Shown here piece after piece: positions 1 through 39,682 of a stretch of DNA of 64,000 nt; the stretch's first letter is position 1; each line of letters opens with the position of its first letter. The position numbers and the translations under genes are program-made. The notes under the pieces were generated by a model. The model saw nothing but the letters and a program-made list of their open reading frames with translations. It made no database searches and was not told the origin of the DNA. The DNA is from a virus (Duplodnaviria > Heunggongvirae > Uroviricota > Caudoviricetes). The stretch covers positions 173,308-237,307 of the IMG/VR virus record IMGVR_UViG_3300043395_001986, one strand, 5' to 3'.

Positions 1-1176
1 GTTAAAATTTATGCAAGTAGTGGATATGGAACACCAGATACTTTAAGACAAGTTTTAAACGCAGAAAATCCAGATGCGGTATTACACTTTACTGACCCAA
101 GATATTGGATTTGGCTGTATGAAATTGAGCATGAAATCAGACAGCACACACCAATATTTTTCTATCATATTTGGGATGATTTACCAGACCCAAAATATAA
201 TCGTAATTATTACGAAAGTTGTGATTGGATTGGATGTATTTCTAAACAAACTTATGGTATTACGAAAAGAGTTTGGGGAAGTAATTCACAATCTCAATGG
301 AAACAACCAGAAGATTGGCAAGTGAGTTATGTACCACATGGTATTCGTTCAGATGTATATAAACCAGTAGATGTTCCTTCTGATTTTAAGAAACAAATAT
401 TAGGTGATAAAGAATATGATTTTATTGTTTATTGGACAAATAGAAATATTAGAAGAAAGCAACCAATTGAAGCGATTTTAGCATTTAATGAATTTGTTAA
501 ATCATTAAGTCCAGAACAACAAAAAAAGGTTGTTATGATAATGCACACACAACCTATTGACGATAATGGAACAGACCTCCCAGCTGTTGTTAGAGATTGT
601 TGTATAAGTGAATGTAATGTAATTTTTGATGATAGAAAAAGACCAGACGAAGAATTAAATCTATTGTATAATTTAGCAGATATTACACTTACACTTTCTT
701 CTAATGAGGGATTTGGATTGGGTACTGCCGAATCTATAATGGCGGGCACTCCTATAATTACGACAGTAACCGGTGGTTTACAAGACCAATGTGGATTTGA
801 AGTTGATGGAAAATATTTAACCGCTGATGATTATGTAAAGATTGGTTCTTTGCATGATAAAAAACAATATGATAAAGTAAAATATGGAGATTGGGTTAAA
901 CCAATTTGGCCAGTTCGTTCAGCAACCGGTTCTGTACCAACTCCATATATCTTTGATGATAGAATTGATTTTGATGATGTAACACCTCTTATTAAAAGTT
1001 GGTATGATATTGGAAGAGAGGCGAGAAAAGCAGCCGGCTTAAAGGGTAGAAAGTGGATGCTTGGCGATGGCGGATTGAGTGCAGAAAATATGTGTCAGAC
1101 ATTGGTAGATGGAATGGAAGGTGCATTTAAAAATTGGAAACCAAGAAAAAAATATGAATTGTTTAAAATAAAATAA
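1..1176 (+). CDS. Glycosyltransferase family 1/GT4-like (GT-B fold), 5'-truncated by window edge
   Basis: Frame 1 is open from base 1 to stop at 1176 (VKIYASSGYGTPDTLRQ... continuous into MSYVPHGIRS...); track ORF 322..1176 is only the part after the first Met. C-terminal GT-B signature EGFGLGTAESIMAGTPIITTVTGG (E-x7-E-like). Confidence 0.7.
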   Translation, partial: VKIYASSGYGTPDTLRQVLNAENPDAVLHFTDPRYWIWLYEIEHEIRQHTPIFFYHIWDDLPDPKYNRNYYESCDWIGCISKQTYGITKRVWGSNSQSQWKQPEDWQVSYVPHGIRSDVYKPVDVPSDFKKQILGDKEYDFIVYWTNRNIRRKQPIEAILAFNEFVKSLSPEQQKKVVMIMHTQPIDDNGTDLPAVVRDCCISECNVIFDDRKRPDEELNLLYNLADITLTLSSNEGFGLGTAESIMAGTPIITTVTGGLQDQCGFEVDGKYLTADDYVKIGSLHDKKQYDKVKYGDWVKPIWPVRSATGSVPTPYIFDDRIDFDDVTPLIKSWYDIGREARKAAGLKGRKWMLGDGGLSAENMCQTLVDGMEGAFKNWKPRKKYELFKIK

Positions 1177-1177
1177 A

Positions 1178-2455
1178 ATGGCAGAAATTCAAAAACCTTT
1201 ATTAGTATTTCAAGGACCTGTGGCAACGAGAAGTGGTTATGGTGACCACGCAAGAGATTTAGTTAGGTCTCTTATTGATATGAATAAATTTGACATAGTT
1301 GTAATATCTACTCGTTGGGGGTCAACTCCTATGACGGGACTACGAAACACAGAAGAAGATAGACAGATTTTAAATTTAATAGGAAAACAAGTTACTAGAA
1401 AACCAGACGTATACATTCAATTGACCGTAGCAAACGAATTTGAAGCAAAAGGAACATATAATATCGGTATTACAGCAGGTGTTGAAACAACCGCTGCACC
1501 AATTGAATTTATTCATGGTTGTAACAAAATGGATTTAATTATTGTACCTTCTCAATTTACAAAAGAAGTTTTACAAAAAACAGCTTATACAGAAAAAGAT
1601 AATCAAACAGGAAGAGTAATAGCAGAACATAGAATTGCAAAACCAATTGAAGTTCTTTTTGAAGGATTTAATGAAAAAACATTTGGAGCAGATGCCATTC
1701 CATATATTACCGAATTAGACCAAATAAAAGAAGATTTTGTATTTCTTTTTGCAGGTCATTGGTTGCAAGGTGGATTGGGACACGATAGAAAGGATGTGGG
1801 TATGTTAATAAAAACTTTTTGTCTAGCATTTGCAGGACAAAAGAATGCACCTGCATTAGTTTTAAAAACTTCATCAGCAGGATTTAGTGTATTGGATAGA
1901 GAATCAATGATTGCTAAAATAAAAACACTTACTGAACAATTTAAAATTTCCCCATCAATATATCTGTTACATGGTGAATTTACAGAGGAAGAAATGAATG
2001 GAGTTTATCACCACCCAAAAGTAAAAGCAATGGTTTCATTTACACATGGTGAAGGATTTGGTAGACCATTATTAGAATTCAGTTTGACGGGAAAGCCGGT
2101 GATTGCATCTAATTGGAGCGGTCATCTAGATTTCTTAAAAGATGGTGCAGTATTGTTAGATGGTAAGTTAGAAGATGTACATGAAAGTGCACAAAATCAG
2201 TTCCTAATTAAAGGAAGCAAATGGTTTTATGTAAATTACAATGAAGCTCTTAAGAAATTTAAAGATATTTATACTAACTATGATAAGTATAAAACACCTG
2301 CTTATCAATTAGGAAAACAAAATTTACAAAACTTTGGTTTAGAAAAGATGACAAAATTATTTGATACCATCTTAACAAACTATGTTCCACCGATAAAACA
2401 ATTTATACCATTAAATCTTCCAAATTTTGAAATAGTAGAAGACGATGCCGGATAA
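1178..2455 (+). CDS. Glycosyltransferase GT4-like (GT-B fold)
   Basis: C-terminal donor-binding motif FTHGEGFGRPLLEFSLTGKPVIASNWSGH typical of GT4/GT1 retaining glycosyltransferases; start 2 nt after previous stop. Confidence 0.72.
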   Translation: MAEIQKPLLVFQGPVATRSGYGDHARDLVRSLIDMNKFDIVVISTRWGSTPMTGLRNTEEDRQILNLIGKQVTRKPDVYIQLTVANEFEAKGTYNIGITAGVETTAAPIEFIHGCNKMDLIIVPSQFTKEVLQKTAYTEKDNQTGRVIAEHRIAKPIEVLFEGFNEKTFGADAIPYITELDQIKEDFVFLFAGHWLQGGLGHDRKDVGMLIKTFCLAFAGQKNAPALVLKTSSAGFSVLDRESMIAKIKTLTEQFKISPSIYLLHGEFTEEEMNGVYHHPKVKAMVSFTHGEGFGRPLLEFSLTGKPVIASNWSGHLDFLKDGAVLLDGKLEDVHESAQNQFLIKGSKWFYVNYNEALKKFKDIYTNYDKYKTPAYQLGKQNLQNFGLEKMTKLFDTILTNYVPPIKQFIPLNLPNFEIVEDDAG

Positions 2456-3029
2456 TTTACCATATTATAGACCTCTTTTTAAAAGAGAAGTATTAGTTCC
2501 ACCTATGAATGTTCAACCAGGGGGTTTTTATAGATTGTGGTCTTATACGACAGTAGAAGGAAAAAGTAAAAACTATGGTGGAACAAAAGCACCTATTTTA
2601 ATGGTAATTGGTACGGTCAAAAGTACCGGTTTAATACATGCAATAAGAGTAAGTGATTTACCAATTAATACTTTTATTAAATTCTTTAAACGAATTATGA
2701 ATAGAGAATTTATACAGGAGTCACTTAATATGGAATATCAAAACACATTCTTAAAGAGAAAGGATTTACATTATAGAAATAACGGAAATGCGTATGTGGT
2801 GGATGAGCCATTTGGTAGAAGTTTCTATCAAAGAATGATTGGTAGCAATAATCTTATCATGAATTACTATGAAACATATAGAACATATAAGATAAAAAAT
2901 ATAAAAAATATGAGAGAAGTGTATTTTGATTGGAAAAAATTTGTTAAAACACATCCACAATTGGGTAAATTTATAATACCAACAAAAACAACACCACCAC
3001 CTCCACCACCAAAAAAAGTAATAAAATAA
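2445..3029 (+). CDS. Hypothetical protein with C-terminal poly-Pro/Lys tail
   Basis: 194-aa ORF overlapping upstream stop by 11 nt; ends TTPPPPPPKKVIK; no recognisable catalytic motif. Confidence 0.4.
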   Translation: MPDNLPYYRPLFKREVLVPPMNVQPGGFYRLWSYTTVEGKSKNYGGTKAPILMVIGTVKSTGLIHAIRVSDLPINTFIKFFKRIMNREFIQESLNMEYQNTFLKRKDLHYRNNGNAYVVDEPFGRSFYQRMIGSNNLIMNYYETYRTYKIKNIKNMREVYFDWKKFVKTHPQLGKFIIPTKTTPPPPPPKKVIK

Positions 3030-3030
3030 T

Positions 3031-3654
3031 ATGAAATTAAGCTTTGCAGTTACGGTCTCAACGGAAATAAAAGAAATAGAAAATTTAATTAAGCTTTTAG
3101 CTAAAAGAACAAAAACTACTGAAATAGTTGTTCAATATGATAGTTCAAACACTACATTAGAAGTTATAGAATTTCTAAATAAAAGTTTAATTGAAAATAA
3201 AATAGATAAATTAGTATCATATCCTTTAAATGGTGATTTTGCTAATTTTAAAAATCATCTAAATGCAAATTGTAGTGGAGAATTTATTTATCAATTAGAT
3301 GCAGATGAATTGATTGATTCCAAATTTTTAAAAGCATTACCAAATGTATTGGATAACAATAAGGATATAGACCTTTTCTTTGTACCCAGAATCAATACAG
3401 TCAACGGATTAACAGAAGAACACATTCAAAAATGGGGATGGAATGTAAACGAAAAGGGTTGGGTAAACTTTCCGGATGTACAAACACGCATATACAAAAA
3501 CAAACAATCTATATTTTGGGCAGGTAAAGTTCACGAAAGAATACAGGGGTTTGAATCATATTCAGTATTACCAGCTGAAGAAATATATTGTATACAGCAT
3601 CATAAAGATATTAAAAGACAAGAAAAGCAAAACGCTTTATATGATACTATATGA
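3031..3654 (+). CDS. Putative glycosyltransferase family 2-like (GT-A fold)
   Basis: N-terminal beta-alpha-beta start (KLSFAVTVSTE), DxD-like YQLDADELID, aromatic-rich C-terminal half; sits among GT2 genes. Confidence 0.45.
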   Translation: MKLSFAVTVSTEIKEIENLIKLLAKRTKTTEIVVQYDSSNTTLEVIEFLNKSLIENKIDKLVSYPLNGDFANFKNHLNANCSGEFIYQLDADELIDSKFLKALPNVLDNNKDIDLFFVPRINTVNGLTEEHIQKWGWNVNEKGWVNFPDVQTRIYKNKQSIFWAGKVHERIQGFESYSVLPAEEIYCIQHHKDIKRQEKQNALYDTI

Positions 3655-4133
3655 ATTGGGTAATTTTTACAACAGAGTGTAGTGGTAAAACAACATTTGC
3701 TAAAAACAATAAATTCAATTTAAACGAATACCAAATTGTTGATTGGGATGTTATTAAGACAGTACCAGATATTAGATATGAAAATGAATTAATGTTTATT
3801 GATTTAATTGTAGAATTGCAAAAATCTGATAATAAAATATATCTAACAAATATAGTTCCACCTGATTTTATTTTTGGATGTAAAGATTATTTTAAAAATA
3901 TAAACTTTGCAATAATTCTTATAAAAGAAGAACAATTAATTAAAAATATTAAAAATAGGCATCATCCACAATATAATAGTCAATATATTATTGATAAATA
4001 CAATTCATTTAGAGTCAAAATTGGCATGAAAAATGAAAAAATAAAAGTATTTAACAATTTTGAAGAGTTTAAAAATTACTTATATCCACCAGCAAGTAAA
4101 TTAGAAATTAAACAAAGAATAATTAGGTTATGA
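3651..4133 (+). CDS. Hypothetical protein (degenerate P-loop-like N-terminus)
   Basis: 160 aa; TTECSGKTTFAKNN resembles a Walker-A-like loop but lacks the first Gly; ATGA overlap with neighbours. Confidence 0.35.
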   Translation: MNWVIFTTECSGKTTFAKNNKFNLNEYQIVDWDVIKTVPDIRYENELMFIDLIVELQKSDNKIYLTNIVPPDFIFGCKDYFKNINFAIILIKEEQLIKNIKNRHHPQYNSQYIIDKYNSFRVKIGMKNEKIKVFNNFEEFKNYLYPPASKLEIKQRIIRL

Positions 4134-4789
4134 AAGAAGTAACTGTCGTTTGTACAAGTTGTAATAGACCGGATTTATTAGAGAAAACACTAGAAAGTTT
4201 TTTTAAATATAACACATATGAATTAACTGCATTTCATATTATAGATGATAGTGCGGTTGTTGGTTGTAATGACCATTTAAAAGAAAAATTCCCATTAGTA
4301 AATTTTTGGTACAATCAAGTAAATTTAGGACAAGTTAATAGTATTGATAAAATATACGGATATGTAACCACTCCTTATGTATTTCATATGGAAGAAGATT
4401 GGGAATTTTACAAAGAAGGTTTTATAGAAGCGGCATTAGAAATTATTGATGTTGAAAAATGTATATGCGTAACTGTCAGAGATATAAATGATACTAAACA
4501 CCCAACAATACCACCAACATATCGAACTAAAAATGGAATACATTTTAGAAAATTAATGTGGGGGTTCGATGGTCATTGGCACGGATTTACATTCAATCCA
4601 TCTTTAAAGAAAATGAAAGATTATCCAGAAAATGGATATGCACCAATTGGTAGAGAATTAGATTTAAGTAAATATTATTATGAATTAGGTTATTTTGCAC
4701 TTACTTTCACCGAAGGATATTGTAGACATGCGGGTTGGGGTAGACATGTTACTGATAAAGGTGAAACGGCAGGATTTCAAACAAATTAA
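4130..4789 (+). CDS. Glycosyltransferase family 2
   Basis: MKEVTVVCTSCNRPDLLEKTLESFFKYN... classic GT2 N-terminus (VxxxTxNRxxxLxxxLxS); HIIDDSAV (DxD/DDS) motif. Confidence 0.6.
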   Translation: MKEVTVVCTSCNRPDLLEKTLESFFKYNTYELTAFHIIDDSAVVGCNDHLKEKFPLVNFWYNQVNLGQVNSIDKIYGYVTTPYVFHMEEDWEFYKEGFIEAALEIIDVEKCICVTVRDINDTKHPTIPPTYRTKNGIHFRKLMWGFDGHWHGFTFNPSLKKMKDYPENGYAPIGRELDLSKYYYELGYFALTFTEGYCRHAGWGRHVTDKGETAGFQTN

Positions 4790-4792
4790 AAT

Positions 4793-5995
4793 ATGAAAAT
4801 AAGTTTTTGTATACCGTCAAAAAACAATTTAAGATACCTTAAACATGCAATACACTATATTCAAAAAAATATAGGAGAAATTGATTATGAAATATTGGTA
4901 TGGATTGATAAAAATGAAGATGGAACTTACGAATGGCTAGAATCGGTTAGACCAAAAAATGTAAGATGGTGGTTAAACCCAAAACAAAATCCATTTGGTA
5001 TAGGTAACGCATATGATTTTTTAGTAGAAAATGCAGATAGTGAACTTATTATGATTTATCATGCTGATATGATAATGGGTAAGCATTGTATACAATATTT
5101 GTTAGAATATGTAAAAAAAGGAGTAGTAGTATCTGCAACAAGAGTTGAACCACCACTACACCCACCCTCAGCGGATAAAATAACATTAGATTTTGGATTA
5201 TGGCCAGAAGCGGATATAGAAGATGGATTTAGAGAGGAAGATTTTGAAGAATTTTGCGTAAGTAATACATTTAATAATTTTGAAACAACAAATGGTATAT
5301 TTGCACCATGGTTAATGTATAAAAGTGATTATATAGGACATGACCCTGCATTAAATTCATTGGCAGAAGATATGGATATATTTTTACGAATGAAATTAAA
5401 AGGATATGAATTTATACAACCAAGAGTTGCATTAGTATATCATTTAACATGCAGAGGTGGACAATTTGAACACGCTGTAAATACCGAAGATTTAAGAACT
5501 CGTAGTAGAGAATGGGAATGGCTAAGTATAAATAAAACAAGAGAATTTATTCGTAAATGGAAACATACACCTTTATTAGACAAAGTTGGCCATCCAATAG
5601 AAATACCAAGATACCAAATGGGAGTAAAGGTAATAAACACAAATACGGATTGGTTGTGGTTGTTTGATTTATATTTTGATAAGGTTTATTTAGAAAATCA
5701 ATCAATGAATGTAAAATTAGCAACCGATAGATATTTGAATTTTGAATCGCAAAATACAGCAACAAATTTATATACAAAATTTAGCAACACAGAGCAATCG
5801 GTAAAAGATTGCGATATTTACATTGAAATAGATTGTAATATCTTAAACACACAATCTCATCCACAATTTTTTGCAGAATTACCTTTCCATATTAAGAAAT
5901 ATGGAATTGAAGGCAAAAAAATGAAAGCGCTGGATATTCTATTTAAATTTAACAAATTAACTGAAAGACAAAAGGAGTATATTTATATAAAGTAA
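4793..5995 (+). CDS. Glycosyltransferase family 2 with ~200-aa C-terminal extension
   Basis: MKISFCIPSKNNLRYLKHAIHYIQKN (GT2 start), LVWIDKNEDGT, MIYHADMIM; long C-terminal domain of unknown function. Confidence 0.6.
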   Translation: MKISFCIPSKNNLRYLKHAIHYIQKNIGEIDYEILVWIDKNEDGTYEWLESVRPKNVRWWLNPKQNPFGIGNAYDFLVENADSELIMIYHADMIMGKHCIQYLLEYVKKGVVVSATRVEPPLHPPSADKITLDFGLWPEADIEDGFREEDFEEFCVSNTFNNFETTNGIFAPWLMYKSDYIGHDPALNSLAEDMDIFLRMKLKGYEFIQPRVALVYHLTCRGGQFEHAVNTEDLRTRSREWEWLSINKTREFIRKWKHTPLLDKVGHPIEIPRYQMGVKVINTNTDWLWLFDLYFDKVYLENQSMNVKLATDRYLNFESQNTATNLYTKFSNTEQSVKDCDIYIEIDCNILNTQSHPQFFAELPFHIKKYGIEGKKMKALDILFKFNKLTERQKEYIYIK

Positions 5996-6006: not shown

Positions 6007-6624
6007 ATGGTGGATTACATAATGAACGAACTTCCTATACTAACAGATAGGGTTAACAAAACAATTAAAAGATATGATTGTGATGAATCCTATAAAGTTG
6101 AATATAAATTTAATGATTTTGGATATAGGTCATCCACAAATTATAGAGATTTATTAAAACAACGAAAAATAGTTTGCTTAGGATGTTCTTTTACAGAGGG
6201 GGTTGGTTTAGATGAAGATGAAACATGGCCATATCTATTATCACAAAAAATAGGATTGCCATTTTTTAATTTAGGAATGGTATGTGGCTCTCAAGGTTAT
6301 ATAATGTGGCAAATACAAAATGTATTAGATAAAATACAAACAGATAATATATTTGTATTAAAACCACCACCTGGTAGAATATTTGAATTAAGAGATGATT
6401 CATTTGATAATATACAATCTTGGAATTATGAAAAACCAGGAAAATCATATGGTAGATTGTATAAATTAAATGATTTTATGTTAGATTCTGTGTGTAATAC
6501 ACATAGAATTAGTTATTTGAGTTCAACCGATTATGGCAATAAGTGGGAAAAGGCAAAGGATGGACATCATTATGGAAAAGACTATCAAGAAATGATAGCA
6601 AATGAATTTTATAAAAATATGTAA
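6007..6624 (+). CDS. SGNH/GDSL-family hydrolase-like protein (paralog 1 of 7)
   Basis: Block I LGCSFTEGVGL (catalytic Ser in GCS), block II NLGMVCGSQG, block V DGHHYGKDYQEMIANEF (DGxH...); homologous to 8573, 9347, 10098, 25649, 54458, 55204 ORFs. Confidence 0.6.
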   Translation: MVDYIMNELPILTDRVNKTIKRYDCDESYKVEYKFNDFGYRSSTNYRDLLKQRKIVCLGCSFTEGVGLDEDETWPYLLSQKIGLPFFNLGMVCGSQGYIMWQIQNVLDKIQTDNIFVLKPPPGRIFELRDDSFDNIQSWNYEKPGKSYGRLYKLNDFMLDSVCNTHRISYLSSTDYGNKWEKAKDGHHYGKDYQEMIANEFYKNM

Positions 6625-6635
6625 ATTTATATAAT

Positions 6636-7040
6636 ATGCCAGCAGTAAGTAAAGCACAGCAAAGATTTTTCGGAATGGTGCATGCAGCACAAAAAGGAGA
6701 AAAACCAGCAAGTAAAGATGTAGCAGATGTAGCTAAAGATATTTCTAAAAAAGATGCCAAAGATTTTGCATCAACTTCACATGAAGGGTTACCAACACAT
6801 GTAAAGAAAGAATTTGCATATCCTACAAATAAAGAATTATGGAAAGAATGTATGGATAGTTTGGGTAAAGGAGCAACGGCAGTTAAGCAATATGAATTAA
6901 AAGGTGGTGGATGGAGACTGGGAGAAGCAGCGGATGAAAGAGTATATAATAAAATAACCGAATTATATGCTAATGAAATCAAACCAATAAAAGAAGCAAA
7001 GGCAAAAATCAGAGAATCGTTAAGAAAAAGAAATAAATAA
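6636..7040 (+). CDS. Conserved phage/bacterial protein of unknown function (SKAQQRFFGMVH N-terminal motif, DUF3008-like)
   Basis: N-terminus MPAVSKAQQRFFGMVHAAQKG matches a widespread uncharacterised family motif (recalled, not searched); basic C-terminus. Confidence 0.45.
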   Translation: MPAVSKAQQRFFGMVHAAQKGEKPASKDVADVAKDISKKDAKDFASTSHEGLPTHVKKEFAYPTNKELWKECMDSLGKGATAVKQYELKGGGWRLGEAADERVYNKITELYANEIKPIKEAKAKIRESLRKRNK

Positions 7041-7042
7041 AA

Positions 7043-7336
7043 ATGACACGAAAACAACTAAAAGAATTTGTTAGAAAATCTTTAATAGAAAGTGGAGTAA
7101 TAAAAGAACGATACACTTTGAAAGAAGAAGGTGGTGACCACGAAGTTGGTATGGCCATAAATTTATTAGATGATATTATAATGAATGCACAATCTTTAAA
7201 AGGTAAAATTGGAACATCCGAAAAAAATTTAGCTGGATGGATACAAGACCATATTTCTCAATCACAAAACTTCATCAGTCAGGCTAATACTGGATATCAC
7301 GAAATTGATGATAAGGAGGAAAATGAAAATGGATAA
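7043..7336 (+). CDS. Hypothetical protein
   Basis: 97-aa ORF, starts 3 nt after previous stop; acidic C-terminus. Confidence 0.4.
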   Translation: MTRKQLKEFVRKSLIESGVIKERYTLKEEGGDHEVGMAINLLDDIIMNAQSLKGKIGTSEKNLAGWIQDHISQSQNFISQANTGYHEIDDKEENENG

Positions 7337-7643
7337 TTTATACACAGTCTTAATATCAGTTGTATCAGTATTAGGTTCGGCAGCAGCTTTCCGCTTCTAT
7401 GAGAAGAAATCAATGAGAAAGGAAAGAGATGACGATTTTATTAGACATGATTGTAAAGATAGAATTGCAAAATTAGAAGCATTATTAAGCCAATCATCAA
7501 AAGAGAAAGATGAACTTCGTAATATGATTTTATCATTGACAAAAGAAGTTGCAGCATTGACCGTAAAAGTTGAATTCCTTACAAAAGAAAACGAAGAACT
7601 TCATAAAAAGTCAAAACCAGCAAAACAATTATTAAAAGGATAA
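7323..7643 (+). CDS. Hypothetical membrane-anchored coiled-coil protein
   Basis: N-terminal TM helix (LYTVLISVVSVLGSAAAF) then coiled-coil-like KLEALLSQSSKEKDELRNMILSLTKEVAALTVKVEFL; AGGAGG at 7314-7319 sits 9 nt upstream of the second in-frame ATG (7329), which may be the true start. Confidence 0.4.
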   Translation: MKMDNLYTVLISVVSVLGSAAAFRFYEKKSMRKERDDDFIRHDCKDRIAKLEALLSQSSKEKDELRNMILSLTKEVAALTVKVEFLTKENEELHKKSKPAKQLLKG

Positions 7644-7652
7644 TTTGTAAAA

Positions 7653-8576
7653 GTGAGTAAAAGAGTTTTAAATGAATTTTTTGGATTAACACCTCAAATA
7701 AAAAATACAAATTGGAATGGTGTTAATATTGAATTGGGTAAAGTTTATTCCAATCCATTCGCTCGTTCATTTAAACCAATAAAAGAAGCAACGAAAGAAG
7801 AAATAAAAAAGAAAAAATTAAGAATATTTGATTTTGATGATACATTAGTAAAAACAAAATCATTTATATATGTTAAACATAAAAACGGAGAAAAATCAAA
7901 ATTATCACCTGGAGAATATGCGGTATATGATAAAAAAGAAGGAGATGAATTTGATTACTCTGATTTTGAAAAGGTAAATGAACCAGAAGAAATTAAAAAA
8001 TACACAAATCTTTTAAGAAAATTTATCGAATCAACCGGTAAAAGAAATGTTGCAATACTAACTGCTAGAGGTGCATACCAACCTGTTAGAGAATACTTAA
8101 AGGATATTGGTATGGGTGATGTATATGTTGCAGCATTGGGTGATAGTGACCCACAAAAGAAAGCAGATTGGATTGAAGATAAAATCAAAAAACATAAATT
8201 TAATGACATCTATTTTGTAGATGATTCTCATAAAAACGTAAAAGCGGTTGGTGAATTAAAAACCAAATATCCAGATGTTACTTTTAAAATTCAACACGTT
8301 AAACACAACGGAAAGTATTGGGCAGATAGAAAAGAAGATAGTAAAGATACAGGTGATTCAAATCAGATAGCAGCAACAGAAAAACCAAAATCAATATCAA
8401 CACCTGATTGGGAAACATTTAAAAATAAATCTACAAAAGAAAAGAAAGATATTTTAGATAAAACAATTAAAAATACTGAAACTGGTAGAAATATTAAATT
8501 AAGAACTGCTCTTAATTATGATGATAAAAAAGCTGTTTATAAAGCAGCTGTTCGTTACTTAAAAACACAAAAATGA
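7653..8576 (+). CDS. HAD-superfamily phosphatase-like protein
   Basis: HAD motif I RIFDFDDTLV (DxDxT), motif II ILTARG, motif IV YFVDDSHKNV; only possible in-frame start after upstream stop is GTG at 7653. Confidence 0.5.
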   Translation: MSKRVLNEFFGLTPQIKNTNWNGVNIELGKVYSNPFARSFKPIKEATKEEIKKKKLRIFDFDDTLVKTKSFIYVKHKNGEKSKLSPGEYAVYDKKEGDEFDYSDFEKVNEPEEIKKYTNLLRKFIESTGKRNVAILTARGAYQPVREYLKDIGMGDVYVAALGDSDPQKKADWIEDKIKKHKFNDIYFVDDSHKNVKAVGELKTKYPDVTFKIQHVKHNGKYWADRKEDSKDTGDSNQIAATEKPKSISTPDWETFKNKSTKEKKDILDKTIKNTETGRNIKLRTALNYDDKKAVYKAAVRYLKTQK

Positions 8577-9343
8577 ACTCATTAAGGTTTTGGAAAAAAA
8601 GTGGTTTTGATGTTGGTACATATGATTGGAAGTTAGAAAATAGAAGAAATAAAACAACTAATATTTCAGGTTCCGATAATTCACAAACAAATACATACAC
8701 TTATAACGAATTAGGATTTAGAGGAGATTCCATTTATAAAAATGGATTTCGTATAATGTCCGTTGGTTGTTCACATACGGAAGGAGTTGGTGTGAATGAT
8801 GACCAATCTTGGCCTCATTACTTTTCACAATTAGTAAATAATGGTGTTGATTTAAACGCAGGGTTTGGTGGAAGAAGTAATGATTACATAGCAAGATGTA
8901 TTATTACAATGGTAGACACATTTAGACCACAATTGGTTAATATAATGTATACCTACCCATCTCGTAAAGAATATTATAGATACAATGGTGATTTGGAGCC
9001 ATTTCATATGAATCCATGGGGATATTTTGCGGATGATATTGAGGGGAAAGAAGAATATAAAGCAATAGCAAGAATTACTCATGATGAAAACGATTTAATA
9101 AATTGGTATAAAAATCATTTATTAATAACAAATTTTCTAAAAGCAAGAAACATAGCATATACTTGGAATGGTTGCTTTTTAATGGATGAAGTAGTTACCG
9201 ATGCAAATAGATTTGATGGTGATTACGGAAATTTCAGAGAATTTTCAATAGATGGTAAACACGCAACAGCAGAACATAATCAAAAATACGCACAAAAATT
9301 ATATAATTTTATTTTGAAAAATGAAATCATTGAGTTACCTTAA
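8573..9343 (+). CDS. SGNH/GDSL-family hydrolase-like protein (paralog 2)
   Basis: Block I SVGCSHTEGVGV, block II GFGGRSNDYI, block V DGKHATAEHNQKYAQKL; ATGA overlap with upstream gene. Confidence 0.6.
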   Translation: MNSLRFWKKSGFDVGTYDWKLENRRNKTTNISGSDNSQTNTYTYNELGFRGDSIYKNGFRIMSVGCSHTEGVGVNDDQSWPHYFSQLVNNGVDLNAGFGGRSNDYIARCIITMVDTFRPQLVNIMYTYPSRKEYYRYNGDLEPFHMNPWGYFADDIEGKEEYKAIARITHDENDLINWYKNHLLITNFLKARNIAYTWNGCFLMDEVVTDANRFDGDYGNFREFSIDGKHATAEHNQKYAQKLYNFILKNEIIELP

Positions 9344-9346
9344 CAT

Positions 9347-10114
9347 ATGAATTGTTTTGTAAAAATATTTGGATGTTCACATTCTGCTGACGGCCCCTTT
9401 CGCAATACAGATAAATTGATATCTTTTTTTAAATCAAATGGATATGAAAATGTATATGTAAAAAATATAGCACATTCTGGAAATGCAAACGATAAAATAA
9501 TAAATGATGTTTATGAAAATGCAGAAATGGAATTGGGAGAAAATATATTTTACATAATACAATATTCTTATTTAAATAGATTGTGGTTACCAAATGATAT
9601 GAATATGATTTTTCATAGTTTTTTATTAGATGAAAAAACAGGTGAATGGCCACCATATATACCAATTGAAAAACGAAAATATTTAAAAAGTATGTATGAG
9701 TCGTTTGTAACTTGTTTTTATAGCGATAAATTGTATTTTGATGATTTGATTAAAAAGATTACATTTTTAAAAACATATTTAGATAGTAAAAATATTAAAT
9801 TTATACATTTTTTATGGGAAGCAGTATCTAGTGAAGAAGAAATGGTAGAATCGAGAAACGAGTTTCATAAATTGTATTTAACGGATAAAATAAAAACAGG
9901 CGAAATAGATAAACGATATTTCAATAAATTAAAAAATTTAGAATTAATAGAATTTGAAAAAAATATATTTAATTTTAGTAAAATATCATTTGATAAAAAA
10001 ATAACAAATTGGCATACATTTGGTGGCGGTAATTTTGATTTGCATTTAACAAATGAAGGAAATGATTTTTTAAGTGAAATTCTATTAAATAAGTTATATG
10101 AAAAAATACAATAA
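9347..10114 (+). CDS. SGNH/GDSL-family hydrolase-like protein (paralog 3, divergent)
   Basis: Block I IFGCSHSADGP, block II NIAHSGNANDKI, block V DLHLTNEGNDFLSEIL. Confidence 0.5.
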   Translation: MNCFVKIFGCSHSADGPFRNTDKLISFFKSNGYENVYVKNIAHSGNANDKIINDVYENAEMELGENIFYIIQYSYLNRLWLPNDMNMIFHSFLLDEKTGEWPPYIPIEKRKYLKSMYESFVTCFYSDKLYFDDLIKKITFLKTYLDSKNIKFIHFLWEAVSSEEEMVESRNEFHKLYLTDKIKTGEIDKRYFNKLKNLELIEFEKNIFNFSKISFDKKITNWHTFGGGNFDLHLTNEGNDFLSEILLNKLYEKIQ

Positions 10115-10943
10115 ATTATATAGCAATGGTTGCTCTTATATGTGGGGACACGGACATAACAATGTTAATATTTTCCATATGTTTGAAGAAACGAAAAATA
10201 TAGATATATCTGAAAAAATGATATATGAAAAAAATTCGTTTTTTAATAATTACGATTGGGTTAGAAAAAAGTTTCAATATCCGAAATTAGTTGCTGACCA
10301 TTTTGGATTAGAATTAATAGATGAATCAATATATGGTGGTAGTTTTGAAAGAGTATATAGAAAAACAATGCAATATATTCTTAAAACAAAAGATATATCT
10401 GATACTATATTTTTATTAGAATGGCCAAACGGAAGTAGAAGTGAATTTTGGTCGAATACAAGTAATAGATTCATCAATCTAACAGCAATGCGAGATAATT
10501 TCGATAATGTTGATTTTGATGATTTTGGGCAAGCAGGTAATTGGTATTATAGATTCTATGACCCAAATATATTTCAAATAAATGAAATTTTTATGGGTTT
10601 AACTTTAAAAAATTATATAGAATCATTGGGTGGTATTGCTGTTTTCTGTTTATGTGATAATTTAGAATTTTGTTTTAAACACGACACAAAAAATGTTGTT
10701 AGTAAGTATTTGAATGAAGATGATTTACGTGAAAAATTAGAAAAAGAAATATATCCAAATTGTGTTTTGTTTGAAAAGGGAATGAATAAAAATTATAATT
10801 TAATATATTACTACTTACATTTAGAAAAAGCAGCATTCAAATACGATACAAATGGGCTATTCAAAGATGAACATAATTCTTTCAGAGGATCGAGACTTAT
10901 TGCAGAGAATATAATAAAACACATAGAAAATGTTACAAATTAA
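10098..10943 (+). CDS. SGNH/GDSL-family hydrolase-like protein (paralog 4, divergent)
   Basis: Block I YSNGCSYMWGHGH, block II ESIYGGSFERV, block V DEHNSFRGSRLIAENI. Confidence 0.5.
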   Translation: MKKYNKLYSNGCSYMWGHGHNNVNIFHMFEETKNIDISEKMIYEKNSFFNNYDWVRKKFQYPKLVADHFGLELIDESIYGGSFERVYRKTMQYILKTKDISDTIFLLEWPNGSRSEFWSNTSNRFINLTAMRDNFDNVDFDDFGQAGNWYYRFYDPNIFQINEIFMGLTLKNYIESLGGIAVFCLCDNLEFCFKHDTKNVVSKYLNEDDLREKLEKEIYPNCVLFEKGMNKNYNLIYYYLHLEKAAFKYDTNGLFKDEHNSFRGSRLIAENIIKHIENVTN

Positions 10944-11931
10944 AATAATACAACCAGATAGATTAGAAAGATTTAATGTTAATTCTGATTTACATAAATT
11001 ATTACCATTCAAAGCAAGAGGTGATGAAAATAATATTATATTTGAAAATTCTAATGATGCTGATATAAACATAGTAAGTTCTTTTCATTTAAAACAATTA
11101 TATAAAAATGAACAATTTTCTGAAATAGAAAATATAGGTAAAAAAATATTAATAATTGATAATATACATGAACATTTGGATATAACCGATTTGGAAAATA
11201 TATCAAAATATTTAGAAAAAAAACCAATAGTTTTTACTGCAAACATTTTATTATACAATTCGGATTTATGTTATACACCATCAAAAGAATTTGCAATATA
11301 TCAATTTTATGATGTTTTACATAGAACTGATTTTATAGAAAATAGGAAGTATGATGTAGTTTCATTTAACAACGCAGTAAGACCATATAGGGATTCATTA
11401 GTAAATAAACTTCTTGAAAAAAAGAAAGAATTTGATGTTATCACATATCTTTTATCAGATATAGCTGGTGTTAAAGAATTTAATAAAAAGTTTAAATGGA
11501 AACATGATGCATATATTGATGTTCAATTTACAATCGCCAACTCATATCTAAATGTATATTCGGAATCTATGTTTTCTCAAAAGCACACCGGAAATCAAAG
11601 TGTAAAAGTAACAGAAAAAACATATTGGAATTTAGTAACGGGTACACCTTTTTTATCTTTTGAGTATAATAATGATAAATTAGATTTTTTAAAAAGTTTT
11701 GGGTTCTATACATTTGATGATTTGAATTTATTTCCAAATGAAGATTTTGATTACAATAAGACCGTAGAGTTCTTAAACACTAAAATTGATTACATATATA
11801 ATATGGATTTAATTGAATATTTTAACAACAATATAGTATTTTGTAAAAATAATAATGTTTTATCTAGAAATATTTTAGAAAATTATAATTTTAAAGAAGA
11901 TTTTACAAAATTATTAGATTCAAATTTTTGA
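10930..11931 (+). CDS. Unknown paralog family 'X' member 1 (putative glycan-processing enzyme)
   Basis: C-terminal region FSQKHTGNQSVKVTEKTYWNLVTGTPFLSFEY...LDFLKSFGFYTFDDLNLFPNEDFDYNKTVEFL aligns with FSEKTIKGLFSPRPFILHSYPFSLKKLRKLGFKTFDFLFDEEYDNIVDHEQRL of 36261 ORF and the equivalent in 37418 ORF. Confidence 0.5.
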   Translation: MLQIKIIQPDRLERFNVNSDLHKLLPFKARGDENNIIFENSNDADINIVSSFHLKQLYKNEQFSEIENIGKKILIIDNIHEHLDITDLENISKYLEKKPIVFTANILLYNSDLCYTPSKEFAIYQFYDVLHRTDFIENRKYDVVSFNNAVRPYRDSLVNKLLEKKKEFDVITYLLSDIAGVKEFNKKFKWKHDAYIDVQFTIANSYLNVYSESMFSQKHTGNQSVKVTEKTYWNLVTGTPFLSFEYNNDKLDFLKSFGFYTFDDLNLFPNEDFDYNKTVEFLNTKIDYIYNMDLIEYFNNNIVFCKNNNVLSRNILENYNFKEDFTKLLDSNF

Positions 11932-25022: not shown

Positions 25023-25062
25023 TTATATTTGATATACTTATTAAAAATAAAAGTATATCAAT

Positions 25063-25674
25063 ATGGTTATAGATGATTTATCCAATATTAAAAAAGAAGA
25101 TAATTCTTTTTTTCCTAATTTAGTACCCGATGGTTCTAAAAATTGGAGTAAGGGAACTACAAAACAGGGTTGGGGTGCAAGGCCTATATTAGAATCTGAA
25201 ATTAAAGAAGCACAAAAAAATGCTCAATCAGCATTTGAAGCAGCAAGAAATTTAGGAGTATCATATAATACCTATAAAAAATGGGCTAAAATATATGGTT
25301 TATTTGATGATGTAAAAAATCAAAGTGGAAAAGGTATATCAAAAGGTGGACAATTAAGAAGTGGTGCATACGCACTTACTGATATATTGGATGGAAATCA
25401 TCCAGATTATCCAATCGGAAAATTAAAAAGAAGATTGATGGATACGGGTACATTTCCTTGCAAATGCTTTAATTGTGAGTTAGAAGAAAAAAGAGTTACC
25501 GATGGAAAAGTTCCCTTATTATTAGATTTTATTGATGGTGATAAACGAAATAAAAAAGCAGAAAATTTAAGATTTTTATGTTATAATTGCTATTTTTATT
25601 TAAGTGGAAATTTAAATGGTTCAAATAGTACATTACAAATAGAAGAAGATGACACAGAAGATTCTGAATTTTAA
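25063..25674 (+). CDS. HTH + degenerate HNH-like zinc-ribbon protein
   Basis: HTH-like NLGVSYNTYKKWAKIYGL; C-terminal CKCFNCE...LDFIDGDKRNKKAENLRFLCYNCY resembles HNH (..H.D.......NL..LC..CH) with catalytic His replaced (F/Y). Confidence 0.4.
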   Translation: MVIDDLSNIKKEDNSFFPNLVPDGSKNWSKGTTKQGWGARPILESEIKEAQKNAQSAFEAARNLGVSYNTYKKWAKIYGLFDDVKNQSGKGISKGGQLRSGAYALTDILDGNHPDYPIGKLKRRLMDTGTFPCKCFNCELEEKRVTDGKVPLLLDFIDGDKRNKKAENLRFLCYNCYFYLSGNLNGSNSTLQIEEDDTEDSEF

Positions 25675-26545
25675 AGAAAAATATGATACCATCTATATAA
25701 ATGGAAGTTCACATGCAGCAGGTGGTGGATTTGAAATTTCAACAATAGAAGAAAAACAAAAACAAATAAAAGGATATAAAGAAATTTTAGATATAGAATA
25801 TTCTAATCCAAAAGAAGTTTCATATGCAAATAGATTATCTGAATTATTAAATATTAAAGTAGTAAATGAAGCTAAAAGTGGAGGCGGACCGGAACGAATA
25901 ATACGAAAAATACACCAATATATAAAAGATAATAGTATAGATAAATTAAAAAAAACATTATTCATTTTAGAAATACCTTCAACTAATAGATTGGATTTAT
26001 GGTCAAATGAATTTATGGAACATTTGGTTTGTAATATAGATTTTAAAAAAGGTTGGGATGGAAGATTACAAACATTTGATTTAGATTATATTCATTTAGT
26101 TAGAGAACATTGGCAAAAAGATGATATATTGGAAATGAAATATACAAAATATTTTGAAGCGATTCAGAATTTTATAAAATATTTTCATAATCCTGTTGTA
26201 TATGAACGAAAAATAGAAAATGAATTAATTGGATTATTTTCTATATTAAAACATATGGGAATAGATTTTTATATTATGCAATCGGGAATGGGGTTGGATT
26301 TTCATAACAAATATAATTTAGAATTAGAAGATAAACATTTTATTAAAATATTTGATGATATTCGTCCAAATATAATTCCACCAAAAGATAAATATTTTAC
26401 TTGTATATCAATATGGAGTGGTACAAAGGGGTTACGAATATTGGATGAAATAGGTAGAGAATACTCAAATGATTATCACGCTGGATATGAAGCTAATAAA
26501 ATTTGGGCAGAATTATTAGCAGATTTCATATTAAAAAATTATTAA
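25649..26545 (+). CDS. SGNH/GDSL-family hydrolase-like protein (paralog 5)
   Basis: Block I YINGSSHAAGGGF, block II NEAKSGGGPERI, block V NDYHAGYEANKIWAELLA; start overlaps upstream gene by 26 nt. Confidence 0.5.
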   Translation: MTQKILNFKEKYDTIYINGSSHAAGGGFEISTIEEKQKQIKGYKEILDIEYSNPKEVSYANRLSELLNIKVVNEAKSGGGPERIIRKIHQYIKDNSIDKLKKTLFILEIPSTNRLDLWSNEFMEHLVCNIDFKKGWDGRLQTFDLDYIHLVREHWQKDDILEMKYTKYFEAIQNFIKYFHNPVVYERKIENELIGLFSILKHMGIDFYIMQSGMGLDFHNKYNLELEDKHFIKIFDDIRPNIIPPKDKYFTCISIWSGTKGLRILDEIGREYSNDYHAGYEANKIWAELLADFILKNY

Positions 26546-35842: not shown

Positions 35843-36268
35843 ATGGGATATAATCCGTATAGATGGTGGACAAGAGGAACAAAGCAAAGAAATAGACCTC
35901 TACCATATCACTACCCACTTGCACAAAGAATAGGTAACGGAGATTATGACCTACATCCTTTGATGGAAGAATGGATTAGTGAAAAGGAAAAATATAAAGT
36001 AGATGTTCAGAAATGTTGGGATGAGTATAAGGGTGATACTAATGCGGGTAGATGGGAATATATGAGAGATAGAACAAGAATGCAAAATTTAAGAGTTCTA
36101 AAATTAGCAGAAGAGTCACATAAAAAAGAAACAGAATTACTATTTAAATTAAGAGAAGAATTAAAGAAAGCATTTAAGATAGACCTTTGGGATGAAGCCG
36201 TAGAAAATTGTGACGGTGATATAAAAGAGTTCTACGAATATTATGCAGTAAGAAGAAACAATGGATAA
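35843..36268 (+). CDS. Hypothetical protein
   Basis: 141-aa ORF. Confidence 0.4.
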   Translation: MGYNPYRWWTRGTKQRNRPLPYHYPLAQRIGNGDYDLHPLMEEWISEKEKYKVDVQKCWDEYKGDTNAGRWEYMRDRTRMQNLRVLKLAEESHKKETELLFKLREELKKAFKIDLWDEAVENCDGDIKEFYEYYAVRRNNG

Positions 36269-37427
36269 AGTAAAATTTTTTTTAGATGATGCAGGTACGA
36301 TTATAGATTTTAATCTGCTTGATATGCAAAAGCAAGATTTAAGTTGGCAAAATCGTAGAGGTTTATTTGATTTGGTTCTAAATGAAAAATTAGAAGCAGA
36401 TACACCTAAACATTTTTATATATTTTCACGTGCGTTTGATGATTTTGTTGATTATTTTTTAGAAAGTATTTACTTTAAAGTAACATTAGAAAAATTACAA
36501 AAAGGAGAAATAGGTAAAATTGTTTTCTTTTGTGAAGATATGGATTGGTTTTCACATTTACAACCAAAATTAGACGATACTTTACATAAATTAAAAAACG
36601 CATTAGGCGATTACATAGATGTTGTAGAATTATATCTACCATCCTACTCGGAATTTGAGTATGAACCAGTTAAAAGATTTCATTCATTTGGATTTCTTAC
36701 TTTTAGATTGGGTTATTATCTCAAATTCCGATTTTTTAATGTCAATTTTTCGAAAATTGAAAAACACTTTTTCTCTGCAAACAATTATCCGAGAGCAAGT
36801 AGAATGCATTTTTACAAATATCTAAACGATAATGAATTATTTGATTATGGTAATTTTTCTTTCTTTAATTTTGCTAATATTCCGTTAGATGAAAATGGTC
36901 AATTCACATATGACCAAAGAGAAGATGATGGTGGATTAAGAAAGATACCATCTGATTATAAATTTGGTGCAATGAAATTCTATAATGAGAGAGAAGATAA
37001 TTATGTCAATCATGAAATTATCAAAGGATTGAATTTAGATATTATTGAAAAATCAGCCATCGAAATTATTTTTGAAACTGCATACTGCAAGGATGACTTT
37101 GTTCAGTTTAGTGAAAAAACAATTAAAGGTTTATTTTCACCACGTCCTTTTATACTACATTCATATCCATTTTCTTTAAAGAAGCTTAGAAAATTAGGAT
37201 TTAAAACATTCGATTTTCTATTTGATGAAGAATATGATAATATAGTTGACCATGAACAAAGATTGTATTATATATTTCATATGGTAAAACAAATTTCATA
37301 TTTGGATATAAACGAAATAAAAGCAACTTTGGAAAAAAACAAAGATGTATTTTTACACAATAGAGATGTATTAAATACTTTTTATAAAAATGAAGTTGAT
37401 ATAATTAGAAAAGCATTATGCTCGTAA
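36261..37427 (+). CDS. Unknown paralog family 'X' member 2
   Basis: FSEKTIKGLFSPRPFILHSYPFSLKKLRKLGFKTFDFLFDEEYDNIVDHEQRLYYIF; tandem with member 3; paralog of 10930 ORF. Confidence 0.5.
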   Translation: MDKVKFFLDDAGTIIDFNLLDMQKQDLSWQNRRGLFDLVLNEKLEADTPKHFYIFSRAFDDFVDYFLESIYFKVTLEKLQKGEIGKIVFFCEDMDWFSHLQPKLDDTLHKLKNALGDYIDVVELYLPSYSEFEYEPVKRFHSFGFLTFRLGYYLKFRFFNVNFSKIEKHFFSANNYPRASRMHFYKYLNDNELFDYGNFSFFNFANIPLDENGQFTYDQREDDGGLRKIPSDYKFGAMKFYNEREDNYVNHEIIKGLNLDIIEKSAIEIIFETAYCKDDFVQFSEKTIKGLFSPRPFILHSYPFSLKKLRKLGFKTFDFLFDEEYDNIVDHEQRLYYIFHMVKQISYLDINEIKATLEKNKDVFLHNRDVLNTFYKNEVDIIRKALCS

Positions 37428-39263: not shown

Positions 39264-39682
39264 CAAAGGTATGGGTAAACGGAACATTTGATATTGTCCA
39301 TTTGGGACATATACAAATGCTAAAAAAAGCAGCAGATTTAGGTGATTTTTTAATAGTTGGAGTTGATAGTGATAAAAGAGTTAGTGAATTAAAAGGAGAA
39401 GATAGACCTATTAATAAATTGATAAGTAGAATTACATTATTAGAAGCAATCAAATATGTTGATAGAGTTGTATCATTTGACTCGGATGAACAATTAGAAA
39501 CTTTGATTAAAACAATGAGACCTACAATAATGGTAATAGGAGAAGAATATAGGGATAAAAGAATTATAGGAAAAGAGTATGTAGGTGAAATTGTATATTT
39601 TCCTAAAATGGAAGGGTTTAGTTCAACAAACATTATAAATAAGTTATATGACAGAGAGAAAGTATCTACCAACATTAAGTGA
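39260..39682 (+). CDS. Cytidylyltransferase-fold nucleotidyltransferase, RfaE/HldE domain-II-like (heptose-1-phosphate adenylyltransferase-like)
   Basis: VWVNGTFDIVHLGHIQMLKKAADLGDFLIVGVDSDKRVSELKGEDRPINKLISRITLLEAIKYVDRVVSFDSD and FSSTNIINKL match HldE domain II; ATGA overlap with kinase gene (start moved from track 39218 to ATG 39260). Confidence 0.78.
   Translation: MTKVWVNGTFDIVHLGHIQMLKKAADLGDFLIVGVDSDKRVSELKGEDRPINKLISRITLLEAIKYVDRVVSFDSDEQLETLIKTMRPTIMVIGEEYRDKRIIGKEYVGEIVYFPKMEGFSSTNIINKLYDREKVSTNIK

Follow-up and report, generated by a model that had tools for sequence, protein, structure and literature searches.

The window, a 64-kb stretch of DNA whose phage origin was supported, encoded seven small proteins carrying SGNH/GDSL-type sequence blocks. 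An earlier note on this DNA had delimited the seven ORFs correctly, all of them on the + strand and 205-298 aa long:

6007..6624, + strand: SGNH paralog, family A short form; 205 aa; GCSFTEG ... DGHH
8573..9343, + strand: SGNH paralog, family A; 256 aa; GCS67HTEG, N95xG97, R131, D227GKH230
9347..10114, + strand: SGNH paralog, family C outlier; 255 aa; FGCSHS ... FDLH
10098..10943, + strand: SGNH paralog, family B; 281 aa; NGCSY ... DEH
25649..26545, + strand: SGNH paralog, family B; 298 aa; NGSS21HAAG, G78G79, R114, D275YH277
54458..55204, + strand: SGNH paralog, family C; 248 aa; FGDS10 ... DDLH214
55204..55839, + strand: SGNH paralog, family C; 211 aa; FGDSYS ... GDKH

The seven paralogs are old and strongly diverged and form three families, A, B and C, with no more than 33% identity to one another. 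Pairwise similarity was seen between 6007 and 8573 (31% identity over 114 aa, E 7e-14), 10098 and 25649 (27%, E 4e-9), and 55204 and 54458 (33% over 85 aa, E 4e-8). HMMs built from the homologs of each family retrieved exactly these seven ORFs, from the + strand ORF set and the six-frame translation alike; with the family C HMM, the seventh match had an E value of 1.6e-5 against 0.19 for the next ORF in the former and 1.4e-4 against 0.12 in the latter. Scores of individual members were 4e-61 for 6007 with the family A HMM and 2e-92 for 10098 with that of family B, and the outlier 9347 still matched at 4e-12 when it and its orthologs were left out of the family C HMM (hhalign to the remaining family, 95.8%). 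The families themselves aligned over near full length with their blocks in register (hhalign: A to B, 96.6%, E 5e-10; A to C, 98.0%, E 1e-13; B to C, 98.4%, E 5e-15), and 54458 aligned to family A at 98.0% and to family B at 98.4%.

Single-sequence scans of all seven proteins against Pfam, PHROG and NCBIfam gave no match above threshold. None reached the Pfam gathering threshold of the clan (best scores 21.4 bits against 32.9 and 18 against 23.6), the sub-threshold matches including 54458 to Lipase_GDSL (E 0.0034) and 55204 to Lipase_GDSL_2 (E 4e-4). Homologs within the families did match Lipase_GDSL, Lipase_GDSL_2 and DUF6071, and some scored better against the clan than the window proteins. 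With the Pfam profiles to which the earlier note had pointed (SGNH_hydro/Lipase_GDSL), all seven stayed below threshold, and 12 of 43 family C members matched Lipase_GDSL (best 1.9e-6). Matches to DUF6071 (PF19547), itself a domain without known function, were weak: 12 of the 24 members of family B and 9 of the 38 of family A gave one (best E 6e-5), and 10098 reached E 0.17 and 11.9 bits against a gathering threshold of 27 bits. In PDB sequence-profile searches, families A and C gave GDSL matches at sub-significant level only, and a HAD match of family B was irrelevant. The fold, a three-layer alpha/beta/alpha arrangement with a parallel sheet, matched solved SGNH enzymes and spanned nearly the entire length of the proteins. 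We regard it as almost certain that the seven genes are diverged members of the SGNH/GDSL superfamily, with common ancestry and the SGNH fold.

As reported earlier, a block I serine, a block II glycine and a C-terminal histidine were present in all seven paralogs; the serine lay in GCSxTEG, NG[SC]S, FGDS or FGCS. Among family members the serine was kept in 38/38 (A), 22/22 ungapped (B) and 42/43 (C) sequences. It lay inside the first 21 residues of five of the seven paralogs, and in five the aspartate of the block I GDS was replaced by Cys or Ser. In the models, S67 of 8573 and S21 of 25649 sat where the helix that follows strand 1 begins, the first helix there, and serine and histidine occupied canonical secondary-structure positions in both. 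The block II pattern N/D-x-x-x-x-G-x-S/A occurred in every paralog, its glycine being kept as G100 in 33/38 (A), G78 in 24/24 (B) and G56 in 39/43 (C), and the C-terminal histidine was kept in 37/38, 23/23 and 43/43, respectively. The block V motif DGxH/DxxH described previously held for 6007 and 8573; the other five instead had a conserved aspartate two residues before the histidine (DxH). An aspartate at H-3 was accordingly a trait of family A only (30/38), with the H-2 aspartate conserved in 23/23 family B and 42/43 family C members. No block III GxND asparagine (oxyanion hole) was conserved after strand 3 in families A, B or C; a conserved arginine followed strand beta3 (R131 in 37/38 of A; R114 in 24/24 of B; R88 in 31/43 of C, plus 6 Lys). 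A transmembrane segment or signal-like N-terminus was found in none of the seven. The paralogs are probably catalytically active, and since the block III asparagine is absent and the aspartate shifted by one residue in families B and C, their catalysis may depart from canonical SGNH chemistry.

Several further genes of the window bear on function:

322..5995, + strand: glycosyltransferase (GT) block, Pfam above gathering score, with GT4 genes at 322-1176 and 1178-2455 and GT2 genes at 3031-3654, 4130-4789 and 4793-5995
7653..8576, + strand: HAD-superfamily phosphatase-like gene; Pfam DUF2608 3.5e-8, NCBIfam HAD-IA 7e-6
10930..11931, + strand: distant member of the u38x family; A7 HMM E 4.9e-8 (next-best ORF, 0.46)
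36261..38554, + strand: two u38x paralogs of 388 and 378 aa, 30% identical to each other
38532..39682, + strand: PfkB-type sugar kinase and cytidylyltransferase-like gene, a sugar-nucleotide activation pair; Pfam PfkB 1.8e-16, CTP_transf_like 1.2e-20

The earlier note had described four contiguous SGNH genes between GT2 and GT4 genes, inside a glycosyltransferase island. The GT block, which also includes two unknown ORFs, is real and lies upstream of the cluster, but only the trio 8573, 9347 and 10098 is contiguous (overlapping or nearly abutting), the GT4 genes are upstream (322-2455) with none downstream, and 25649, 54458 and 55204 fall outside the island and are not near sugar genes. Gene 6007 lies 2 kb upstream of the trio, with four unrelated genes (6636-8576) between. 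The HAD gene overlaps the start of 8573 by 4 nt, and 10098 overlaps the 9347 gene by 17 nt and 10930-11931 by 14 nt, so that HAD, A, C, B and u38x genes follow one another as an overlapping or near-abutting run. The PfkB-type kinase shared 41-45% identity with T4-like cyanophage genes. Scans for promoters and terminators near the cluster performed no better than shuffles, no tRNAs were found in the 64 kb, and AT3 or MBOAT proteins had no match among the ~47 window proteins scanned with Pfam, a set that included some of the small ORFs.

We flag u38x here as a second multi-copy family that travels with the SGNH families. The member at 10930-11931, overlapping the end of the trio, had been taken for a GT4; it had no Pfam, NCBIfam or PDB match and no detectable glycosyltransferase similarity, and this assignment was rejected. 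A single related 50%-identity cluster was found for it among 1.84 billion representatives. In related phages, homologs of the pair at 36261..38554 lie directly beside SGNH genes or form fusions with them. Membership of u38x in the GT10 fucosyltransferases was not established, hhalign aligning the FucT motif at 11% and 5% probability, and sphingomyelinase matches in the PDB profile search were weak, fell in a low-information region and were considered spurious. The u38x family is possibly a very divergent fucosyltransferase-like glycosyltransferase.

Each SGNH paralog had orthologs of its own in other contigs at 62-100% identity (75-99% for 6007), against the 33% or less between paralogs, which contradicts the lineage-specific expansion proposed earlier. 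A multi-copy set had been called unusual for a virus, but such sets are common in related IMG/VR contigs. These low-GC T4-like phages carried SGNH tandem arrays of up to six copies, one 95-kb contig held at least nine copies of the superfamily, and both B+C and SGNH+u38x fusion proteins were present. Clustering at 90% identity gave at least 975 clusters for family A alone, and 342 IMG/VR contigs encoded it. A search of 50,697 GenBank phage records (megablast, tblastn) with the region, 8573, 10098 and the family C member P0175 gave no match. Judged by DNA polymerase, the closest cultured relative was Microcystis phage Mel-JY01 (49% identity), in which no superfamily member adjoins the polymerase; in a genome collection, family A occurred at only two MAG loci, where its neighbours were uninformative, and nothing relevant was found in the literature on DUF6071, Mel-JY01 or phage SGNH expansions. 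The superfamily is kept multi-copy across a clade of uncultured, low-GC, large T4-like aquatic phages (roughly 100-320 kb contigs). Glycosyltransferases and sugar-nucleotide genes were recurrent neighbours: the GT4-GT4-GT2-GT2-GT2 block followed by C/A/B SGNH genes was conserved in loci L105-L112, and in other contigs arrays adjoined PfkB kinase, cytidylyltransferase and u38x genes. The best-conserved of the three families, A, lay directly downstream of DNA polymerase B, with clamp and clamp-loader genes adjoining, at 38 of 83 loci, although these neighbourhood counts overstate independence because many counted loci are near-identical contigs. This position of family A, and the three of seven window genes situated away from sugar genes, run counter to a glycan context.

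Among characterised enzymes in the PDB, the one closest to family A in sequence was the CE3 acetyl-xylan esterase CtCes3 of Clostridium thermocellum (2vpt), at a sub-significant E of 0.025 and 17.3 bits. Its GDSCTEG and DGLH align with GCSHTEG and DGKH of family A, and GCSHTEG is therefore not very unusual, contrary to the earlier description. Resemblance to 2vpt and to the CE2 esterases 2wao and 2waa was at fold level only, and no family-level sequence similarity to a characterised CE2 or CE3 member was found. Unlike these esterases, the phage proteins lack a signal peptide, dockerin, carbohydrate-binding module and the block III GxND asparagine, and they have a beta-hairpin insertion and the conserved arginine after strand 3. 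The SGNH esterase domains of phage tails (G7C gp63.1, 4qnl; SFP21A Gp09, 9lna) belong to tail proteins 600-850 aa long, whereas the SGNH proteins of the window are multi-copy, free-standing and without recognisable tail genes adjoining; the tailspike/tail-fibre esterase class was rejected, the fold here covering nearly the whole of a small protein. Being free-standing, which the earlier note had stressed, is correct at 205-298 aa but not special, as small free-standing SGNH proteins are frequent among BFVD/UniProt entries of 'uncultured Caudovirales phage'. These (e.g. A0A6J5L8Q9, A0A6J5P3N2; 180-300 aa) share the fold (Foldseek E 5e-12, TM 0.70-0.73; 46 matches at E<=1e-3) at only 14-24% identity, and none is characterised. 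The AT3-SGNH O-acetyltransferases (OafA, OafB, OatA) were likewise rejected, there being no membrane AT3 partner among the ~47 window proteins scanned and no signal-like N-terminus or transmembrane segment in any of the seven. A cytoplasmic PAF-AH-type SGNH esterase domain occurs in NeuA, the CMP-sialic acid synthetase, where it is leaderless and intracellular, acts on an O-acetylated sugar or sugar-nucleotide and sits beside a cytidylyltransferase. Family A profile matches to PAF-AH Ib were weak (E 0.1-0.25) and none was significant, and sialic-acid genes were not identified in the window.

The proteins are soluble, have no signal peptide and retain Ser, Gly and His(-Asp), and most likely act inside the infected cell as Ser-His(-Asp) acyl-esterases or acyl-transferases. 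They may act on O-acyl groups, probably O-acetyl, of sugars or sugar-nucleotides that pass through the glycosyltransferase and sugar-activation steps encoded by the phage itself, with separate paralogs providing separate specificities and B-type and C-type enzymes perhaps acting jointly. We lean towards this reading of multi-copy SGNH acyl-esterases or -transferases as a whole; genomic context and structural neighbours make a carbohydrate O-acyl esterase or transferase role plausible, and a carbohydrate-linked substrate, taken by itself, is proposed at slightly less than even odds.

The proteins might instead be lipid or acyl-thioester hydrolases (like TesA, lysophospholipase L1 or PAF-AH) redirecting host fatty-acid or membrane-lipid metabolism, which we consider unlikely: every resemblance to lipases stops at the level of the fold, lipid-metabolism genes were not seen among the neighbours examined, and the recurrent neighbours are those for glycosyl transfer and sugar activation. 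It is less likely again that the proteins, or family A at the least, have a role in the metabolism or modification of DNA or nucleotides, for instance by removing or transferring an acyl group carried by a modified base or a nucleotide precursor. The position of family A after DNA polymerase B would fit, as would locus L018, where two Mom-like genes occur together with a radical SAM gene, a PD-(D/E)XK nuclease and a GT4 weakly matching the 'GT4-conflict' model, also matched by window gene 322-1176. However, T4-like replication modules are often broken by unrelated small genes, the window proteins that were scanned included neither a hydroxymethylase nor a base-modifying gene, and five glycosyltransferases in a row, three of them GT2, suit oligosaccharide assembly more than base glycosylation; we know of no SGNH enzyme acting on DNA. 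Marginally less probable still are cell-wall (peptidoglycan O-acetyl) esterases assisting lysis, or peptidases/amidases of the CgnD type. CgnD (PDB 8a2n) is an SGNH-fold hydrolase that cuts off a leader peptide in crocagin biosynthesis (PMC10070186); it shared 16% identity with no sequence-level match, ranked only 32nd for the family B model, and belongs to a RiPP cluster rather than a phage. That the seven form no true family, their blocks being chance short motifs in AT-rich ORFs or inactive structural relics, is hardly credible; the lack of above-threshold matches in single-sequence scans and of the block III asparagine would agree with it, but the family relationship established above already refutes the first part.

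A broader and rather doubtful extension of the sugar O-acyl reading is that the SGNH arrays, u38x, the kinase/cytidylyltransferase pair and the GT2/GT4 genes constitute one widespread, undescribed system for making a glycan and altering its O-acylation. Such a system would be phage-encoded and combinatorially variable in uncultured aquatic T4-like phages, with B-type and C-type esterases working as a pair, and its glycan might decorate the virion or the infected-cell surface, for instance to block superinfection or evade receptor-based resistance.

Nothing is overturned here: phages often carry SGNH enzymes, and assigning this fold is conventional. Families A, B and C, so far without Pfam or PHROG annotation, can now be annotated as SGNH-fold enzymes. 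Should they indeed be esterases or transferases of sugar O-acyl groups, a diversified glycan-editing toolkit would accompany the glycosyltransferases and sugar-activation enzymes that large aquatic phages themselves encode, which would bear on the ways in which phages of abundant freshwater and marine bacteria alter the surface of their hosts or decorate their virions.

All seven open reading frames that an earlier note had read from the sequence as diverged SGNH/GDSL-superfamily paralogs (named by their starts: 6007, 8573, 9347, 10098, 25649, 54458 and 55204) were present at the coordinates given there, encoding proteins of 205 to 298 aa. Within the window proteome, BLASTP paired 6007 with 8573 (family A; E 7e-14), 10098 with 25649 (family B; 4e-9) and 54458 with 55204 (family C, including the outlier 9347; 4e-8), with weak links between 9347 and 54458 and between 10098 and 6007. 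A search of 5.8 billion proteins found 975 homologs for A, 23 for B and 42 for C, from which alignments A4, A5 and A6, in that order, were made. Profile-profile comparison joined A with B (96.6%, E 5e-10), A with C (98.0%, E 1e-13) and B with C (98.4%, E 5e-15), in alignments spanning nearly the full length with motif blocks in register. The family HMMs pulled out exactly seven open reading frames, both from + strand frames and from a six-frame translation; for the family C HMM the seventh match stood at 1.6e-5 and 1.4e-4, respectively, and the next frame at 0.19 and 0.12. A family C HMM made without 9347 and its orthologs found 9347 at 4e-12. By these sequence comparisons the family is therefore real, as had been proposed, with seven window members and no more at this sensitivity.

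When the seven were scanned singly against Pfam every match fell below threshold, mostly in the same direction (Lipase_GDSL, Lipase_GDSL_2, Lipase_GDSL_3, ALGX, DUF6071 and DUF6473). Among homologs scanned singly, Lipase_GDSL_2 was matched by 18/38 family A members, Lipase_GDSL or Lipase_GDSL_2 by 12/43 of family C (best 1.9e-6), and DUF6071 by 12/24 of family B and 9/38 of family A. In predicted structures of one family A and one family B protein, the Ser lies where the helix that comes first after strand 1 begins, and the His lies three residues ahead of the C-terminal helix, which in these models are the canonical SGNH positions; the assignment of family C is based on Pfam matches and hhalign links. 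Homolog matches, profile links and the modelled Ser and His positions bear out the SGNH fold, and we consider its assignment solid.

Motifs were tallied in a merged alignment of the seven and by column counts per family. The Ser is found in all seven (38/38 in A, 22/22 in B, 42/43 in C), as is the His (37/38, 23/23 and 43/43), and the block II Gly falls within an N-x-x-x-x-G-x-S pattern in 7/7. The Asn of block III GxND is absent from the merged alignment and from the per-family columns of A, B and C. An Arg just after strand 3 is conserved (37/38 in A, 24/24 in B, 31/43 in C), and both models have a beta-hairpin insertion at this site. Block V, previously described as DGxH/DxxH, holds for family A, where alone the conserved Asp is at H-3 (DGxH), but not for B and C, where it is at H-2 (DxH). 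In a sub-significant match to the CE3 esterase 2vpt, GDSCTEG of the esterase aligns with phage GCSHTEG, which the earlier note had singled out as non-canonical, and its DGLH with phage DGKH. No hydrophobic N-terminus or transmembrane segment was seen in any of the seven, and five have the Ser among their first 21 residues; as judged from sequence the proteins are soluble and intracellular, or perhaps carried within virions.

The genes around the seven include:
322-1176 and 1178-2455, + strand, GT4 genes
3031-3654, 4130-4789 and 4793-5995, + strand, GT2 genes
7653-8576, + strand, HAD-type phosphatase, one of four genes between 6007 and 8573
51977-53137, + strand, FG-GAP/VCBS repeat protein (2e-26), ~1.3 kb upstream of 54458/55204

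The earlier note had placed four contiguous paralogs between GT2 and GT4 genes. The upstream glycosyltransferase block is real and 6007 follows its last GT2 (4793-5995), but four unrelated genes, among them one for a DUF3008 protein, separate 6007 from 8573, and the supposed GT4 at 10930-11931 has no detectable GT4 similarity. Genes 8573, 9347 and 10098 form a run: the HAD-type gene overlaps 8573 by 4 nt, 3 nt separate 8573 from 9347, 9347 overlaps 10098 by 17 nt, and 10930-11931 overlaps 10098 by 14 nt. Immediately upstream of 25649 are a nuclease and an HNH endonuclease (24387-25674), the HNH gene overlapping the start of 25649; these and 25649 may form a mobile cassette. Downstream of the FG-GAP repeat protein, 54458 and 55204 lie among small open reading frames without known function.

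That the source is a large phage is indicated by several findings. Identical copies of window proteins occurred on JGI metagenome contigs, the longest of 237,307 bp, in the protein collection search. The window encodes a phage-type ATP-dependent DNA ligase (phrog_114, 1e-75), an HNH endonuclease and a CobS/CobT-like pair, and several of its proteins matched PHROGs strongly. Contigs with 8573 orthologs are classed as viral in IMG/VR; they have Kyanoviridae-type genes and genes for ribonucleotide reductase and for T4-type DNA polymerase B, clamp and clamp loader. By polymerase the closest cultured relative is Microcystis phage Mel-JY01 (49% identity), and identity to T4-like cyanophages is ~32%. 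All window genes lie on the + strand, every 2-kb bin across 1-64000 shows positive GC skew, GC is 24-35% and there are no tRNAs in the 64 kb; GC drops to 0.235 at 10-12 kb, where the SGNH cluster ends and 10930-11931 lies. Other window genes are:
14275-16932, + strand, LCCL-domain protein of 885 aa (LCCL 5.7e-15; C-type lectin match sub-threshold)
28617-31988, + strand, CobT-like protein (704 aa), then CobS/MoxR-type AAA ATPase
33127-34050, 58695-59234 and 60634-61116, + strand, two SPFH/Band 7 proteins and an NlpC/P60 peptidase
38532-39682, + strand, PfkB sugar kinase and cytidylyltransferase-like pair

The LCCL protein had no tblastn match among GenBank phages; it might bind glycans or sit on the virion surface.

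A lineage-specific expansion, unusual for a virus, had been suggested; the wider distribution speaks against this. Each paralog has its own orthologs on other metagenomic contigs at 62-100% identity, whereas the window paralogs share at most 33%, so the copies are old. Relatives occurred on 342 (A), 23 (B) and 89 (C) IMG/VR contigs. Within plus or minus 10 kb, at least two superfamily genes were present in 53/83 loci centred on family A, and at least three in 44/101 centred on B or C, counts that are non-independent since many loci are near-identical contigs. Two loci held six (five C-type and one B-type in L115; six C-type in L134), one 95-kb contig (L039 and L115) held at least nine, and GC was low (0.25-0.40) in all. 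What emerges instead is a multi-copy superfamily that is widely distributed among aquatic T4-like phages of an uncultured clade. BFVD gave 46 matches at E<=1e-3 to free-standing SGNH-fold proteins of 180-300 aa from 'uncultured Caudovirales phage', whereas tblastn found no match in GenBank phage records; the family is therefore abundant and so far confined to uncultured phages, save for family A on two bacterial MAG contigs.

Three neighbourhoods recur. In one, relatives with a family A protein of 61-86% identity retain the order GT4-GT4-x-GT2-x-GT2-GT2 with C/A/B genes behind it; the SGNH type in each slot varies. In another, SGNH arrays adjoin homologs of 36261-37427 and 37418-38554 and of the 38532-39682 pair, whose kinase is 41-45% identical to T4-like cyanophage genes, some annotated ADP-heptose synthase; we read this pair as resembling a split HldE. 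In the third, found in more distant relatives (38/83 loci), the family A gene has DNA polymerase B directly before it and the clamp and clamp loader genes after it. Upstream of this polymerase/family A pair in a 198-kb relative (L018:3494-6322) are two Mom-like genes and a DruA-like gene, which hint at DNA modification in that lineage. Multi-copy 2OG-Fe(II) oxygenase paralogs (44 members in 24 loci; e.g., L192:12198-13273 and L080:8218-8952) also adjoin SGNH arrays in some contigs.

The genes 36261-37427 and 37418-38554 are paralogs (30% identical) without Pfam, PHROG, NCBIfam or PDB-sequence matches, and belong to a second multi-copy family, u38x, of 330-490 aa proteins. Its HMM A7 (26 members) matched 10930-11931 at 4.9e-8, with the next open reading frame at 0.46, so that this gene, coupled to the SGNH trio, is by profile match a u38x member. 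Genes of u38x occur in 41/185 viral loci and in half of those with at least four SGNH genes, and 21/72 have an SGNH gene within 100 bp. The C-terminal consensus resembles an alpha-1,3-fucosyltransferase (GT10) motif, and hhalign aligned exactly that motif at probabilities of 11% and 5%; we regard the likeness as a lead, not a result. Natural fusions were of two kinds, B-domain-then-C-domain proteins of ~600 aa on five contigs and two 700-aa frames in which a u38x domain comes after an A-like SGNH domain:
L092:3071-4831, L093:8254-10014, L094:9986-11794, L095:9935-11791 and L178:9071-10921, B+C SGNH fusions
L135:2359-4461 and L179:668-2770, SGNH+u38x fusions

Such fusions are an argument for joint action of B and C and for cooperation between the SGNH enzymes and u38x. 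IMG/VR labels the L092 contig as a giant-virus bin (GVMAG), which is probably an artefact of binning.

Since sugar-related genes mark two of the three contexts and most structural neighbours are carbohydrate esterases, we favour the reading that the SGNH enzymes act on sugars as O-acyl esterases or transferases, and give it slightly less than an even chance. Lipid or thioester hydrolysis, a nucleotide- or DNA-linked role, and a peptidase or cell-wall role are open alternatives. The observation in the earlier note was essentially right once its layout and block V description are corrected, and its functional reading, enzymes acting on carbohydrate O-acyl groups, seems plausible. The SGNH families described here are divergent and unannotated, and the most interesting leads are the co-travelling u38x family and the domain fusions.
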